DNA of 5,659 bases from Candidatus Aenigmatarchaeota archaeon (GTDB lineage Archaea > Aenigmatarchaeota > Aenigmatarchaeia > Aenigmatarchaeales > JACQIB01): NCBI GenBank assembly GCA_046760225.1, contig JBHIDR010000039.1, positions 1 through 5,659 on the forward strand, written 5' to 3'. Of this stretch, positions 50 to 5,469 are shown one piece after another. The position numbers and the translations under genes were made by a program. Within the stretch, counting starts at the first letter, position 1; every line of letters starts with the position of its first letter. The notes beneath the pieces were generated by a model. That model saw only the letters and a list, made by a program, of their open reading frames with translations, was not told the origin of the DNA and did no database searches.

Positions 50-940
50 ATGCTGATAAAGAGCATAAGGGAGGTTCCTGAGGAACATCTTGTGACAGGT
101 GGCCATGGCCTTTGCGCTGGCTGCGGACCGAGCATAGGCCTGAAGCTCGCACTGGCAGTGCTGGGGAAAAACACTTTCGTGATTAATTCTGCTGGCTGCT
201 TCACCCTGCAGCCAACATATCCTTATACGCCATTCAAGGTGCCATGGATACATCTTGCAATAGAGAACGGGGGTGCTGCTGCTGTTGGCATATGCTCTGC
301 GCTGAAGGCCCTGAAGAAAAAAGCAACCGTGCTTGCGTACATTGGTGACGGCGCAACCTATGACATAGGCCTTCAGTCCCTGAGCAATGCGCTTGAGCAT
401 GGTCATGATTTCATCTATATCTGCTATGACAACCAGAACTTTGCGAACACAGGACATCAGATGGATTCAGCAACACCAAAGCTCACATGGACAGAGACAA
501 CACCAAAGGGAAACCCGTTCTGGAGAAAGCCCATAAACAAGATAGTGGCAGCGCACGGCATACCATATGTTGCAACAGCAAGTGTAGGCTTTCCTGTTGA
601 TTACATAAACAAGCTGGAAAAGGCAAAGCGCATAAGGGGACCGAAATTCATTAACCTGCTGAGTCCGTGCCAGCCTGGATGGAAGGTTGACCCCTCACTG
701 ACAGTTGAGGCAGGCAAGCTTGCTGTTGAATGCGGTGCATGGCCGCTGTATGAGATTGAGGACGGGAAGTTCAGGCTGACCTACAAGCCGGAGAAGCTAA
801 AGCCAGTAAAGGAGTACTTGAAGATTCAGGGAAGGTACAGGCACCTCAAAGAAAAGGACATAAGAAAAATACAGGAATGGGTAAACGAGGAGTGGAGGCA
901 GCTTTCAGCAGGAAATTTCTGGGAGGCAAGGGAATACTAG
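50..940 (+). CDS. porB: Pyruvate/2-ketoisovalerate:ferredoxin oxidoreductase beta subunit (TPP-binding)
   Basis: 296 aa; GHGLCAGCG, SAGC and SPCQPGW supply the [4Fe-4S] cysteines; TPP-binding motif GDGATYDIGLQSL...YDNQNFANTGHQ; C-terminal PVKEYLKIQGRYRHL typical of PorB. Confidence 0.93.
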   Translation: MLIKSIREVPEEHLVTGGHGLCAGCGPSIGLKLALAVLGKNTFVINSAGCFTLQPTYPYTPFKVPWIHLAIENGGAAAVGICSALKALKKKATVLAYIGDGATYDIGLQSLSNALEHGHDFIYICYDNQNFANTGHQMDSATPKLTWTETTPKGNPFWRKPINKIVAAHGIPYVATASVGFPVDYINKLEKAKRIRGPKFINLLSPCQPGWKVDPSLTVEAGKLAVECGAWPLYEIEDGKFRLTYKPEKLKPVKEYLKIQGRYRHLKEKDIRKIQEWVNEEWRQLSAGNFWEAREY

Positions 941-1983
941 TTCAGGGGCGTGAACTCAAAGTCCCATGCATCATCTATGGGGTATTCCTCAACAACACCT
1001 ACCTTCAACTTTGTTTTCCTGGCTATGCTCCTGGCAATCGCCTCAGATGTCTGCATCCTTTTTCTTAGTTTATTGTAAGAGAACATTCTTGCTGGTACTT
1101 TCAGCCTCTTCATCTCCTTTTCTGTTTGTTTTTTTGTTCCAAGCACAACGCCCTTGAGCAGGAAGCCGTCCTTGGTTACCTTTTCAAACGGCTTCTTGAT
1201 GTTCCTTGCCCTGTTTGCCAGCCTGTTCCTGAGCTGGTGGTCCAGCTTGAGTCTGGCTGTGCAGAAATGAACATTAAGATTTTTCGCATTCCCTGCAGCA
1301 TACCTGAGGACAGACAGGGCTGTGTTCCTGCTTCCCCTGACAGCTGTGAGTGAGCCTGATGACAGGACCATTCCAAGCTTTTTCATTGGCTCGACATTCC
1401 TTTCAGAGAACTCCAGCTCGTTCAGGTTAAGGAACTTTGCACCTGCTGCATCCAGCCAGTCGGCCAGTCTGCACAGCTGTTTTTTCCTGCCCGGTATCAC
1501 AGGCACCTCCATGCCAACATCCCAGTCGAACTTGAGTGCTTCCTTGACAAGCTCCTGGTTTGTATGTATCCTGATTTCATCAAGTCCTGCCTCATAAAGC
1601 TTCTTCAGCGCCTTACCATCTATTGTGCCGTTGGTATAGAGGTGAAGGTGAAAATCCTTTCCAAACCTTTTCTTCAGAATCCTTATCAGCCTTGCTGTGC
1701 GTGCCAGCCTTGTCAGCGGCTCGCCCCCTGTCATGCCTGCGCCGGTTGAACCGCTCTTTCTTATCTCGCTGATCAGTTGCCTGGTGTTTTTTATTCGTGC
1801 CTCGTTTGCCCATACCTCATCCTTCTGCCACCTTTTCTTTGAGATCGAACAGTACCAGCAGTTCAGGTTGCATATGCCTGTGACAAAGACCACGGTCTTC
1901 CTTCCTTTTATGCAGGGTCTGCAGCCCTTGGGCAGGGTGCCGAGTGCAAAGGATTCACCGGATGTTCTTGAAATCTTTCGCAT
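937..1983 (-). CDS. Radical SAM protein, COG2108-like archaeal family (function unknown)
   Basis: LPKGCRPCIKGRKTVVFVTGICNLNCWYC (CxxxCxxC plus upstream CxxC), TGGEP, HLYTNG, LDEIRIH, FLNLNELEFS, VHFCT. ATG at 1983 preferred over the TTG at 2001 in the ORF track. Stop overlaps the porB stop in CTAG (937-940). Confidence 0.88.
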   Translation of the reverse strand: MRKISRTSGESFALGTLPKGCRPCIKGRKTVVFVTGICNLNCWYCSISKKRWQKDEVWANEARIKNTRQLISEIRKSGSTGAGMTGGEPLTRLARTARLIRILKKRFGKDFHLHLYTNGTIDGKALKKLYEAGLDEIRIHTNQELVKEALKFDWDVGMEVPVIPGRKKQLCRLADWLDAAGAKFLNLNELEFSERNVEPMKKLGMVLSSGSLTAVRGSRNTALSVLRYAAGNAKNLNVHFCTARLKLDHQLRNRLANRARNIKKPFEKVTKDGFLLKGVVLGTKKQTEKEMKRLKVPARMFSYNKLRKRMQTSEAIARSIARKTKLKVGVVEEYPIDDAWDFEFTPLN

Positions 1984-2015
1984 GAAAGAAATAGAGAGCA
2001 ATAACTCTTAAGTGT

Positions 2016-2243: not shown

Positions 2244-3408
2244 TCAAAGCATCCAAAACTGTCCTGGCTTTTTCTTCAGGGCTGCCTTTCCGATGCCTTC
2301 GAGATTCTTTTTGCTTATGTGTTCCCCGCCAAGCGAGACAATGAAGTCAAAAACGTTTTTTTCAGGTACAACAGACTTGATTTCAGGATAAAGAATGCCT
2401 CCTGCTCCGGGCGCCAGACTGTTGCTGATGACTGCAACTGCTTTGCAGTTTCCAAGTGCCTGTGAAATCTCCTTTTTTGGGAGCGGCCGTAGGCACCTCA
2501 GCTGGAGAAGCCCGGCCTTTACCTTCTTTTTTCTTAGGGAGTCCACAACAGCCTGAAGTGTTGTGCACATTGCTCCGAGGGCAACATACACGATGTCCGC
2601 ATCCTGTGTTTTATATTTTTCCACAACAGCATACTTCCTTCCAAACCTCTTGTTAAATTCACTGAAGATTTTGGGCATGAGCTGAAGGGCATTTAAGTGA
2701 GCCTTGTGCACCTGTGAACGGAATTTCATATAGCCTTCCATTACAGGGACGCCCATTGATATGGGCCTGTTCGCATCAAGCGATGTAACAGGCTTGTAGG
2801 GTGGTAGGAAGAGGTCGACCTGCTTTTGTTCAGGAACTTCTGTTGGCTCCCTTGTGAAGCTGAGTATGAAACCGTCCATGTTTACAATCGCTGGAAGAAG
2901 AACCTTGCTGTGTTCTGCAATCCTGAAGGAGAGTATTATGCTGTCAAGGACCTCTTGGTTGTTCTTGGCAAACAGCATTATCCAGCCTGAGTTGCGCAGG
3001 GCCATTATGTCATTGTGGTCGCTCCATAATGTTATTGGGGCTGAGAGACCACGCGAGCAGTTTGCCATCACAAGCGGCATCCTCATACCGCTGGCCACAT
3101 AGTGCATCTCGTGCATCAGCATCAGTCCCTGGGAGGAAGAAGCAGTGAATGTCCTTGCACCTGTTGCCTGGCTTGCTATTGCTGCAGATAGCACAGAGTG
3201 CTCTGATTCAACTGGCACGAACTCGCCATTCCATTTGCCTTCGGCCTTCCATTTTGCAAGGACCTCTATTATCTCGGTTTCCGCTAATCAGAGCCTAACT
3301 CGAGATTAATTGCGGTGTGATTGGGAAATTTGGAACAACCTGGGCCCTTGCCAGCCTTGCTCCCCATGCTGCTGCCTTGTTGCCGTCCATGAGCGTTTTT
3401 GCAGCCAT
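2244..3408 (-). CDS. porA: Pyruvate/2-ketoisovalerate:ferredoxin oxidoreductase alpha subunit, split into exon 1 (3408-3310, 33 aa) and exon 2 (3278-2244, 344 aa); 377 aa when joined
   Basis: Exon 1 reads MAAKTLMDGNKAAAWGARLARAQVVPNFPITPQ. Exon 2 continues TEIIEVLAKWKAEGKWNGEFVPVESEHS...GARTFTASSSQGLMLMHE...SRGLSAPITLWSDHND...DGFILS, in frame with the 324-aa ORF in the track, which lacks the real N-terminus. Confidence 0.92.
3279..3309 (-). other. 31-nt putative archaeal mRNA intron with a relaxed bulge-helix-bulge (BHL/HBh') motif
   Basis: Sense sequence TTAATCTCGAGTTAGGCTCTGATTAGCGGAA lies between codons Q33 and T34, shifts the frame and has an in-frame TAG (3297-3295). Fold: CCGC/GCGG 4-bp central helix, 3-nt bulges AA^U and AA^A, intron stem UAAUC/GAUUA plus GAGU/GCUC. 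Cutting after the second nt of each bulge gives CCG CAA ACC GAG (PQTE). Confidence 0.8.
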
Positions 3409-3420
3409 AACTAAATACTT

Positions 3421-3441
3421 GAAAACTATAAATATAAAAAA
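3421..3441. promoter_or_regulatory. Overlapping bidirectional TATA elements for porA (-) and the LAGLIDADG gene (+)
   Basis: gaaaacTATAAATATAAAAA: TATAAATA at 3427-3434 is 24-31 nt upstream of ATG 3458 with a purine-rich BRE-like GAAAAC. On the minus strand TTTATA at 3438-3433 is 25-30 nt upstream of the porA ATG at 3408. Confidence 0.6.
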
Positions 3442-3457
3442 CCATAAATGACATTAT

Positions 3458-4585
3458 ATGTATTTACGAAAATTATCAAATTTAACCAGAAAATACAATA
3501 TTCCAGAAGAATTTATTGTTCCAACTTACAGATACATTAAATCTCATTCTAAAAGGAGAAAGGACTTTGAAAAAAACTTCTTTAAGAGATTTTCAAAAAC
3601 GAAGAGGCAAAGAAGGTTTACATCAAAAAGAATATTGATCAAAAATAAAAGACATCCTGTTGAATTTGCAAGACTTAGGATGCATATAAGAGGCGACGGG
3701 GGTATAAGCAAAAGTGGATATGTATTTTATTACAATTCGGATAAGGCCTTGCTTAATGAATTTATAAACGATTCAAAAAAGGTATTTAAGAATACAAATG
3801 TTTGCATAGTTGGTGACAAGGTTTATCTTTCTAGGAATGTTTCAAGATTTTTTATAGAAAAATGTGGCTATATACCTGGATTAGAAATAACGCATAACTT
3901 GGGTGTAGATTTGGACATATTGAAATGTAATAAAATAATAAAATCTCAGGCAATACGTGCGTATTTTGACGATGAAGCGAGGTTTCATTCTAATGCTATT
4001 GAGATAGTCAGAACAAGAGACATGGGGTTTTTACCTGGGGATACATTGAAGAAGGCTATACAAAACCCGCGAAAATATCATAAATATGCTCCCAGATTCT
4101 TACATGATTTAAGGAGCATGTTAAAAGACCTGGAAATAGATACAGGTCTTCCGTTCGTTTACAAGGGAGACTTATTGATGCATGTTGATGTATACGGGTT
4201 CTTAAGACTGTCTGTTCCATGGAGGTTCTTAATAACAGGAGAAAGTAATTTAAGAAGGTATTACGAATTGGTAGGTTTTAAAAGTGAAAAAAAGATGAAA
4301 ATGCTTGGAGATTATCTGAGAAATATAAAGGTTCATAAAGCGAGAAAAAACAAATCAATAAAGCTTGCTATCAAAAATTGTAAGGATTTACAATCTAGAA
4401 GAGGTTTTATAACCGTAAGTTACCTTGCTGAATTTTCTAATAGAAGTGTAAGGCATTCTAGGAGGTGGATATACAAACTACTAGAGTTAAATAAAATAAA
4501 ACTCATTCAAGGTAGGACTGTATATCAGGACAATAAAGGTAGGATGTATAAAGGGTCGGACGAATTCAAATACAAATTGTGCTAA
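3458..4585 (+). CDS. Free-standing double-motif LAGLIDADG (DOD) homing endonuclease-like protein with C-terminal winged HTH
   Basis: 375 aa; motif 1 FARLRMHIRGDGGI (D80), motif 2 AIRAYFDDEARF (D171-E173), block-H-like RYYELVGFKSEKK (V272-F274); C-terminal GFITVSYLAEFSNRSVRHSRRWIYKLLELNKIK resembles a wHTH; no Hint splicing blocks. Sampled 60-nt lines are 25-37% GC versus 52-55% in porA. Confidence 0.82.
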   Translation: MYLRKLSNLTRKYNIPEEFIVPTYRYIKSHSKRRKDFEKNFFKRFSKTKRQRRFTSKRILIKNKRHPVEFARLRMHIRGDGGISKSGYVFYYNSDKALLNEFINDSKKVFKNTNVCIVGDKVYLSRNVSRFFIEKCGYIPGLEITHNLGVDLDILKCNKIIKSQAIRAYFDDEARFHSNAIEIVRTRDMGFLPGDTLKKAIQNPRKYHKYAPRFLHDLRSMLKDLEIDTGLPFVYKGDLLMHVDVYGFLRLSVPWRFLITGESNLRRYYELVGFKSEKKMKMLGDYLRNIKVHKARKNKSIKLAIKNCKDLQSRRGFITVSYLAEFSNRSVRHSRRWIYKLLELNKIKLIQGRTVYQDNKGRMYKGSDEFKYKLC

Positions 4586-4924
4586 TTAAGACTTCCTCCT
4601 GAATTCCTTTTTCACGTCCCTAATCTTGTCAATTGCCTTGACAGGGCAGTTTGCCCAGCAAAGGCCACAGCCCTTGCACATGTTGAAATCGAAAACAGGC
4701 TTGCCGACACTCTTTGCATCTGGAAAGGGCTTTTCCTTTTTCCATTTTATGGCCGAGTCAGGACAGAAAGCAAAGCATATTTTGCATGATATGCACTTGC
4801 TGTAATTTATTTTTGGCCTGAAAACCCTCCAGCCTCCCATATACTTTTTTGAGGAATTGCCTGCTTCAGCCACAAAGGGGATACCCTTTACATCCTCATA
4901 CTTTAGTTTCTTTTCCTCCTTCAT
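4586..4924 (-). CDS. porD: Oxidoreductase delta subunit (2x[4Fe-4S] ferredoxin-like)
   Basis: GGWRVFRP motif, CISCKICFAFCPD and CKGCGLCWANCP; start overlaps the porG stop (ATGA, 4924-4921). Confidence 0.92.
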   Translation of the reverse strand: MKEEKKLKYEDVKGIPFVAEAGNSSKKYMGGWRVFRPKINYSKCISCKICFAFCPDSAIKWKKEKPFPDAKSVGKPVFDFNMCKGCGLCWANCPVKAIDKIRDVKKEFRRKS

Positions 4925-5469
4925 CCGACCATCTCATAACATCTTTTTGCTGCCTCAATATTCTTTGGTATGGCCTCGGGGTGGCCTGCCTCTGTAAGCT
5001 CTATTCTTATGGCCTCTTCGAGCTTTTTGAAATCCATACCGAGAATTTTCACAGCAGCTCCCATGAGTGCTGCATTTGCAATGGGCTTTCCTATTAACTC
5101 AAGTGCAACCTCTGTTGCATCTATTGCATAGGCCTTGTTTCTTATCCTGAATTTTTTTCTGAAGAACGATGCTGGATTGGGGCTGTTCAGGAGAATAAAC
5201 GAGTTCCTCTTCAGCCCTTTCAACATCTTCTTGAAGTCCAATGTCTCATCGAATATTATTATGGTATCTGGCTCAAAAACATAGCCGCGCTCGAGCACGA
5301 TCTTTCTATCGCTTCGTACAAAGGATACTACAGGGGCTCCCCTCCTTTCAGCCCCGTACATTGCAAAATTCTGCGTATAGAAACCGGAAAGGAAATATGC
5401 GCGTGCAAGAAAGTTGGAAGACATCTTTATGCCCTGCCCGCCCCTGCCATGTATACGTACCTCAAACAT
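4921..5469 (-). CDS. porG: Oxidoreductase gamma subunit (PorG/PorC)
   Basis: EVRIHGRGGQG, YGAERRGAPVVSFVR, IDATEVALELIGKPIANAALMGA, NIEAAKRCYE. Confidence 0.93.
   Translation of the reverse strand: MFEVRIHGRGGQGIKMSSNFLARAYFLSGFYTQNFAMYGAERRGAPVVSFVRSDRKIVLERGYVFEPDTIIIFDETLDFKKMLKGLKRNSFILLNSPNPASFFRKKFRIRNKAYAIDATEVALELIGKPIANAALMGAAVKILGMDFKKLEEAIRIELTEAGHPEAIPKNIEAAKRCYEMVG

Follow-up and report, generated by a model that had tools for sequence, protein, structure and literature searches.

The window analysed here, a stretch of 5,659 nucleotides that makes up one entire contig (C39) of an Aenigmatarchaeota archaeon genome (851 kb in 83 contigs, 83% complete), contains porA, the gene encoding the alpha subunit of pyruvate:ferredoxin oxidoreductase (POR), interrupted near its 5' end by a 31-nt insert that we describe as a candidate intron of the bulge-helix-bulge (BHB) type. 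On the minus strand, porA exon 1 (3310..3408; 33 codons, MAAK...FPITPQ, defined by translation and by tblastn to relatives) is followed by the insert (3279..3309) and then by exon 2 (2244..3278; 344 codons plus the stop, beginning TEIIEVLAK), which matches the Pfam families POR_N (profile positions 20-224 of 231, E 1.5e-52) and PFOR_II. The order of genes on this strand is porG (gamma subunit, 4921..5469; Pfam POR, E 1.5e-35), porD (delta subunit with a 2x[4Fe-4S] ferredoxin domain, 4586..4924; Pfam Fer4 families) and porA; a plus-strand open reading frame (ORF) of 375 aa (3458..4585), which we assign by its modelled fold to a homing-endonuclease gene (HEG), separates porD from porA. The beta-subunit gene porB, whose product binds thiamine diphosphate (50..940, plus strand; Pfam TPP_enzyme_C), is convergent with porA, with a radical-SAM gene (937..2001) between the two, instead of trailing porA as in a porGDAB operon; a convergent porB is likewise present in G037, a genome of the same order. 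The porA-family match in the window is the only one in the source genome, as far as that genome is complete (83%). Searches of the window for Rfam families and, with ARAGORN, for tRNAs found none.

Read without splicing, porA begins at the ATG at 3408 (minus strand), runs from MAAK to FPITPQ, continues into LISS and reaches a stop after 37 codons. Removal of 3279-3309 yields a single open frame (...NFPITPQTEIIEVLAK...) whose only stop is the terminal one, and in which FPITPQTEIIE is restored; because AA flanks both ends of the insert, removal of 3280-3310 or of 3281-3311 yields an identical product. Translation and deletion thus agree to the base with a preliminary description of this DNA, made from its letters, which had proposed that a 31-nt insert breaks an otherwise intact porA with a stop after 37 codons. 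Exon 1 is 73-86% identical (tblastn) to the N-termini of porA from eight relatives. That the insert is genuine DNA is evident from four DNA runs, all from one study and one of which may be the source sample: their contigs span 3279-3309 with no indel and no joint.

The pre-mRNA can be folded, at exactly the bases that the preliminary description had named, as CCGC-[AA^U]-UAAUC-(14 nt)-GAUUA-GCGG-[AA^A]-CCGAG, which has the geometry of a splicing-endonuclease substrate. Helix H consists of 4 bp between the 5' exon end CCGC (H.1; 3312..3315, minus strand, comprising the Pro codon and the first base of the Gln codon) and GCGG in the 3' part of the intron (H.2; 3281-3284), and the intron hairpin h' pairs UAAUC (3304-3308) with GAUUA (3285-3289) around a 14-nt loop (3290-3303). 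The two 3-nt bulges lie on opposite strands, each 3' of its strand of H: bulge 1 occupies 3309-3311, with the cut between 3310 and 3309, while bulge 2 has its first two bases (3279-3280) in the intron and its third (3278) at the start of exon 2. A cut after the second base of each bulge restores the frame, and the deletion product bears out the earlier proposal that such cuts would recreate FPITPQTEIIE; indeed, the only frame-restoring product is the one obtained from cuts at the bonds that the BHB rule specifies. When the 31-nt insert was subjected to mononucleotide shuffling, an equally good motif, defined as an H of 4 bp plus an h' of at least 5 bp at a product-preserving cut, arose in 33 of 200,000 shuffles. 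In a 56-nt context, the proposed fold is the minimum-energy structure (-11.8 kcal/mol, with an H-pair probability of 0.65). A canonical hBHBh' motif is not formed here, as the outer exon-exon helix h is absent (17.9% of cells paired in the alignment described below); the motif is the relaxed HBh' form, as had been anticipated from the unpaired exon-exon stem.

Relatives were then compared for interruption at the same site. Ten porA-family loci were compared within the order, of which seven orthologues and one paralogue are uninterrupted through PITPQ/T, one (in G037) is broken precisely at the PITPQ^T boundary by 36 nt that include two in-frame stops, and one (in G020) has no exon-1 match. In this last genome (contig C5; loci L015 and L056), the porA match starts at exon-2 residue 32, inside a 526-aa frame that directly follows porG, and may represent either a porG-porA fusion or a rearranged N-terminus. 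A phylum-wide search yielded porA-family matches in 148 of 371 genomes. From these matches 18 loci were taken for their apparently short open frames, and nine of the 18 are interrupted at that boundary too; three further loci, in G248, in G288 and on one metagenome contig (L038), were added by way of their neighbouring HEG ORF. Overall, at least 14 loci, belonging to 13 species genomes in at least seven families and to one metagenome contig, have an insert at PITPQ^T, a lower bound given that 25 of the matches fall outside the comparison and that most of the others were judged by open-frame length only. The inserts range from 29 to 36 nt in length. Six of the interrupted genes are of the TEIIE type and are orthologues of the window's porA, and the other eight are of a TH(I/V)xE-type paralogue, which shares 36-42% identity with the window protein. 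At all 14 loci H is 4 bp long and the bulges take the forms [A(A/G)^N] and [NN^A], while the adjacent stem varies widely in both sequence and length.

This structure is maintained by paired changes. In an alignment of the 14 loci (A4), nine pairs, namely the four of H and the first five of h', are paired in 96.8% of 126 cells, compared with 66.3% in column shuffles (none of 500 reached the observed value) and 34-44% after displacement of the partner by 1-3 columns; for covariation, the score is 0.795 vs 0.179. Pairing within h' amounts to 94.3% of cells, and all five of the h' pairs vary on both sides. The silent third base of the Pro codon and its partner in H.2 (A4 pair 12-47) are AU in six loci, GC in three, UA in two, UG in two and GU in one. 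With H.2 permuted among loci, the full pairing observed was obtained in 6 of 100,000 trials, or in 11 of 100,000 with the same-genus trio collapsed; as the 14 loci are phylogenetically related, these permutation and pairing figures overstate independence. A compensatory change is also evident among close kin, a stem pair having gone from U-A to C-G within the same-genus trio.

Two further properties of these loci bear on whether the interrupted genes are functional. Divided by three, the insert lengths leave a remainder of 0 in four loci, 1 in three and 2 in seven, and an in-frame stop is present in 14 of 14 inserts; because the lengths span all three classes and every insert carries a stop, these inserts cannot be tolerated peptide insertions. 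Since the comparison of the window with G037 is saturated, selection was measured on closer intron-bearing pairs. Among three congeners that have the intron, the ratio of nonsynonymous to synonymous substitution (dN/dS) lies at 0.11-0.18 in either exon; a more distant pair, for which dS exceeds 1, gives 0.06-0.08. Intron-bearing porA genes are therefore under purifying selection and are not decaying. Presence of the intron varies within a genus (three of the four genomes of g165, most of them judged by open-frame length). Among the checks that the preliminary description had put forward for its proposal were support for the insert in DNA reads, conservation of helix and bulges in same-site inserts of relatives, and selection on both exons, and each of these three came out in its favor. 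Its interpretation is supported; what had gone unseen in it were the neighboring HEG and the spread of the intron.

The source genome encodes the enzymes to which the preliminary description had attributed processing, the tRNA-splicing endonuclease EndA and the ligase RtcB. Two EndA-domain genes are located on contig C2. The product of one has its nearest match (3iey_A, E 4.4e-35) in the catalytic alpha subunit from the heterotetramer of Nanoarchaeum equitans, and the histidine of REH(T/S)KW is retained in it; that of the other has a Gly aligned to the corresponding His of the M. jannaschii enzyme, a residue that we take to be catalytic. Such a pair suggests an (alpha-beta)2 heterotetramer, which would be able to cut relaxed motifs; cleavage of relaxed BHB motifs has been reported for EndA of the (alpha-beta)2 and epsilon2 classes (PMC5829648). 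The rtcB gene itself has two BHB-type inserts (G000 contig C35, about 1560-1700; locus L004:1154-1700). One is a frame-breaking 32-nt insert with the form UAGG-[AU^U]-GACUAAA..UUUAGUC-CCUA-[AA^A], removal of which gives GGIGYDINCG (boundary GGIG/YDINCG), and the other is an in-frame 30-nt insert, at GHEGY/GFPIGG, with the form AAGG-[AU^A]-UUCUG..CAGAA-CCUU-[AA^A], which corresponds to an exact 10-residue insertion relative to Pyrococcus horikoshii RtcB at GHQGY/GFPIGG. An archease-like gene lies just upstream of rtcB. ARAGORN predicts introns in 13 of the 21 tRNA genes of this genome. Genome-wide scans for mRNA introns by ORF joining gave counts like those of shifted-cut controls (e.g., 20 vs 17-21), and do not discriminate, because shifting both cuts keeps the frame and neighboring genes join by chance. 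A stricter motif filter retained four frame-breaking candidates (porA, rtcB and two others) and 27 in-frame candidate matches, and overlooked the in-frame insert of rtcB.

We conclude that 3279-3309 is very probably an archaeal intron of the relaxed HBh' type that is spliced by EndA and RtcB, with cleavage and ligation postulated from the sequence. According to this model, helix H would consist of the 4 bp between the last bases of exon 1, CCGC, and a GCGG close to the intron's 3' end; the intron hairpin h' (UAAUC/GAUUA) would stack on H, and the splice sites would lie in the 3-nt stretches [AA^U] and [AA^A] on opposite strands. EndA, which is probably a heterotetramer given that a catalytic and a non-catalytic paralogue are both encoded, would sever each stretch behind its second base. 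Ligation of CCGCAA to ACCGAG by RtcB would bring back the reading ...PITPQTEIIE..., with the excised 31-nt intron probably set free in circular form. Several considerations weigh against this conclusion: (i) splicing of porA at the RNA level is something that we infer, no RNA run being among the sequencing runs listed for this DNA; (ii) with helix h missing, the 3' splice site does not lie in a closed bulge, so that cleavage requires an EndA that accepts relaxed motifs, an ability predicted here from the two paralogues; (iii) to a mild degree, extending the context to 71 nt favors another structure of lower energy (-14.5 kcal/mol), in which the 5' bases of the intron pair with exon 2, and the z-score of the fold is -1.43; and (iv) because rtcB is itself interrupted, production of the ligase would rely on ligase already present.

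Other explanations of the interruption fare less well. It is very improbable that porA is a split gene, with a 33-residue peptide that assembles with the rest of the protein, or that the insert is removed by some other RNA or DNA process. Split protein genes are described from the Nanoarchaeota (PMC3655853), and translation of a shortened protein could begin from the GTG at 3218; however, exon 2 opens with a Thr codon, no start codon is present at the boundary in any of the 14 loci, the boundary is base-identical in two paralogue groups, and a simple split leaves the conservation of structure at the boundary unexplained. We see a slimmer chance still that porA is a pseudogene, inactivated by the insertion of 31 bp whose hairpin shape would be an accident. 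The straight reading of the gene, truncated after 37 codons, would fit such an origin, and porA was not found in the six other genomes of the same family, so that it is possibly dispensable in this lineage. Yet the 344-codon exon 2 is intact, as are porB, porD and porG; 14 loci are broken at the same codon boundary with their exons intact; the dN/dS of 0.11-0.18 applies to both exons of intron-bearing congeners; and there is covariation between the helix and a silent base of the exon, a relation that would not be kept up in a dead gene.

Translational bypassing, in which the ribosome would hop over the insert, is to be credited even less. Examples of bypassing are known from phage T4 gene 60 and from the mitochondrial 'byp' elements, which the insert resembles superficially in that it is short, contains a hairpin and includes a stop soon after the would-be take-off site. 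The landing codon must match the take-off codon, though, and in none of the 14 loci does the CAA or CAG that ends exon 1 match the triplet preceding exon 2 (GAA, GUU, GAG or GAU); in addition, the conserved feature is a 4-bp exon-intron helix with 3-nt gaps, which is the geometry of an EndA substrate and not a hopping signal. Finally, the window belongs to a metagenome-assembled genome and its contig is short (5.7 kb), which might point to an error of assembly or sequencing; for practical purposes, such an artefact is already refuted by the contigs of four runs that contain the insert with no indel, and by same-site inserts of differing sequence in 12 other species genomes and one independent metagenome contig.

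We return to the candidate intron, and to the ORF that lies next to it. This ORF (3458-4585, plus strand), which points away from porA, encodes a free-standing LAGLIDADG homing endonuclease of the double-motif kind, membership being assigned by way of its predicted fold. By sequence, its match to Pfam LAGLIDADG_3 scores 19.3 bits, under the cut-off of 22.5; its family comprises 10 proteins in a collection of 5.8 billion sequences, and a profile of this family compared with PDB sequences retrieved nothing relevant, only chance matches to bromodomains. An AlphaFold model built from the family alignment (pLDDT 89.6) has the alpha-beta-beta-alpha-beta-beta-alpha fold in duplicate, with acidic residues on both LAGLIDADG helices. 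The best Foldseek matches of this model are LAGLIDADG endonucleases encoded in inteins and introns (7qsu, 1.1e-7; 1dq3; 2dch; I-DmoI), and a probability of 1.00 was returned for PI-PfuI, I-Tsp061I, I-DmoI and the TliVMA intein endonuclease. G79-D80-G81-G82 and D172-E173, which fall within the two motif helices, are invariant in the 10 family members.

Homologues of the HEG are located between porD and porA, in the same orientation, in G037 (58% identity), G248 (about 50%), the metagenome contig L038 (about 40%) and G288 (27%, beside the paralogue). All five HEG copies found beside porA-family genes accompany an intron, in a count that leaves out the family members P0002, P0004 and P0006-P0009; none of the eight uninterrupted porA-family loci of the order has the HEG, and there porD abuts porA. 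Within genus g118, intron and HEG are present in G248 only, one of five genomes, most of which were judged by open-frame length. Searches for further copies returned, from genome contigs, only the G248 record and a distant paralogue, from metagenome contigs a single contig, and from viral contigs none. Distant paralogues (about 26-30% identity) are encoded by G105, G029 and G027, away from porA. Adjoining the start of the HEG is a 30-nt block (3428..3457, assigned to neither strand) that is identical in G037 and nearly so in G248, while the remaining ~20 nt up to the porA ATG differ; the block probably serves the HEG cassette as its promoter and leader. In all four DNA runs (X1-X4), a contig resembling G037 branches off at precisely 3428-3457, and two lineages with HEG plus intron therefore share the samples.

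Matches to LAGLIDADG_3 number 37 in the source genome; part of them lie in inteins, and others are free-standing. Those at G000 C3:24967-25736, C16:1954-2594 and C72:49-440 are tRNA-associated: one match lies inside a 693-nt intron that ARAGORN predicts in tRNA-Tyr, and two lie 23-33 nt from the genes for tRNA-Gly and tRNA-Pro, which have predicted introns of 28-29 nt. A HEG beside a tRNA mini-intron is the same arrangement as that at porA. Elsewhere in the phylum, other elements are associated with porA. In G341 (C11; L055, 1757-2737, minus strand), porA contains a 327-residue in-frame intein at about residue 86 of exon 2, with Pfam matches to Intein_splicing, Hom_end_hint and LAGLIDADG_3, and a similar porA intein is probably also present in L038 (about 486-1457); porA in this phylum is thus struck by at least two kinds of selfish element. 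In G215 (C13), a porA paralogue with the intron has, immediately upstream, an ORF for a reverse transcriptase (L052, 2172-3236, minus strand; Pfam RVT_1, E 2.6e-21), which may belong to a group II intron or a retron-like element. In G064 (C22; L046, 2289-3134, plus strand), an ORF of 281 aa takes the place that the HEG has in the window, next to a porA paralogue with the intron and directed away from that gene; it has no Pfam match and could be an unrecognized endonuclease.

We tentatively propose, as a possibility that we would not yet favor, that the intron is tied to the neighboring endonuclease by collaborative homing, in which an ORF-less intron protects the genome of a free-standing endonuclease from its own enzyme and is carried along with it (PMC6083498). 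The endonuclease would attack porA alleles that lack the intron, cleaving them in or close to the conserved stretch that encodes PITPQTE; the intron would disrupt this target and so protect its carrier; and repair of the cut allele from the carrier would copy both the HEG and the intron. The HEG always occurs with the intron and the intron often without the HEG, which is the asymmetry that collaborative homing predicts. Our caution stems from the target site, which is hypothetical, and from a sample that is small and related. Three points count against a link between endonuclease and intron: the loci are related, so that counts of their co-occurrence overstate independence; no HEG copy is present at nine of the 14 intron loci (within flanks of ~2 kb); and the conserved cassette block stops ~20 nt upstream of the porA ATG, leaving the intron outside the cassette. 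It is conceivable, at a similarly guarded level, that the mini-intron acts as an 'immunity patch' against an endonuclease aimed at the invariant PITPQTE-coding DNA of POR-type alpha subunits, such that the only alleles to survive carrying the HEG are those with a target broken by an insert that EndA can remove. If true, this would explain why dissimilar inserts of 29-36 nt recur at a single phosphodiester bond in both groups of paralogues, and why they vary within genera.

The closest published relatives of the porA intron are the introns of cbf5 pre-mRNA in Crenarchaeota (Watanabe 2002; Yoshinari 2006; Yokobori 2009, PMC2738675). As reported in those studies, the cbf5 introns are likewise short, ORF-less BHB introns in a coding sequence (16-44 bp, compared with 29-36 nt here), are substrates of the tRNA-splicing endonuclease, and are tied to hetero-oligomeric EndA and relaxed motifs. 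The two differ in host gene (a central metabolic enzyme here, an RNA-modification enzyme there) and in lineage (DPANN here, Crenarchaeota there). They also differ in that a HEG adjoins five of 14 loci here, whereas the cbf5 paper, in its passages on the subject, notes only that the intron is too short for one. Splicing of cbf5 has been shown experimentally, while the porA intron is known from sequence. Non-canonical introns of archaeal tRNA and rRNA (HBh', hBH and BHL forms; PMC5829648) have the same 4-bp helix and 3-nt bulges, with one flanking helix missing, and HBh' is described there as a recognized class of substrate for broad-specificity EndA; the same enzymes are implied for the porA insert. 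Unlike those introns, that of porA would be removed from mRNA, where the junction must hold the frame, and because its H is built from codons, H coevolves with synonymous sites.

For the proposed homing, the parallel is F-CphI and psbA of cyanophage S-PM2 (Zeng, Bonocora and Shub 2009, via PMC6083498), where, as here, a free-standing HEG adjoins a gene with an ORF-less intron. Every endonuclease-bearing locus in our set has the intron (5 of 5), in keeping with that parallel. The F-CphI case differs in that its intron is a self-splicing group I intron and in that cleavage of the intron-less allele has been demonstrated (PMC6083498). The porA intron, in contrast, would depend on host proteins, and its HEG is of the LAGLIDADG type with a putative target. 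In the unconventional splicing of eukaryotic HAC1 and XBP1, a small mRNA intron is excised at stem-loops by protein alone, with RtcB-type ligation and a change of frame; the nuclease is IRE1 and not EndA, and splicing is a regulated stress response. These systems are mentioned in PMC8718801 and in the reference list of PMC5829648.

The 2009 paper on cbf5 states, in the sections that treat the matter, that splicing of archaeal pre-mRNA had been confirmed for no other gene, with some cases predicted (PMC2738675), and papers of 2018 and 2025 in Nucleic Acids Research still cite, where they touch on archaeal pre-mRNA, the cbf5 work alone. Our literature search, which most subscription journals lay outside, found neither a BHB intron in POR or porA nor an mRNA intron in DPANN archaea. 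New for archaeal mRNA introns would be the host gene, the phylum and the wide recurrence at one site; the partnership of the intron with a free-standing LAGLIDADG endonuclease is possibly novel as well.

If the intron is spliced as we propose, the sole POR alpha subunit of a reduced genome would depend on the tRNA-splicing machinery. For annotation, genes such as this are called pseudogenes or fragments, with the result that metabolic reconstructions of DPANN archaea are skewed. For the study of evolution, exon codons and intron bases that coevolve to keep a helix constitute a natural system for the origin and persistence of protein-spliced introns. The association with a HEG makes the origin and spread of such introns testable in vitro, and should the homing model be true, protein-spliced mRNA introns of DPANN archaea would owe both their creation and their spread to homing endonucleases, similar reasoning may extend to the HEG-flanked tRNA mini-introns of the source genome, and the doubly interrupted rtcB would sit in a self-dependent loop.

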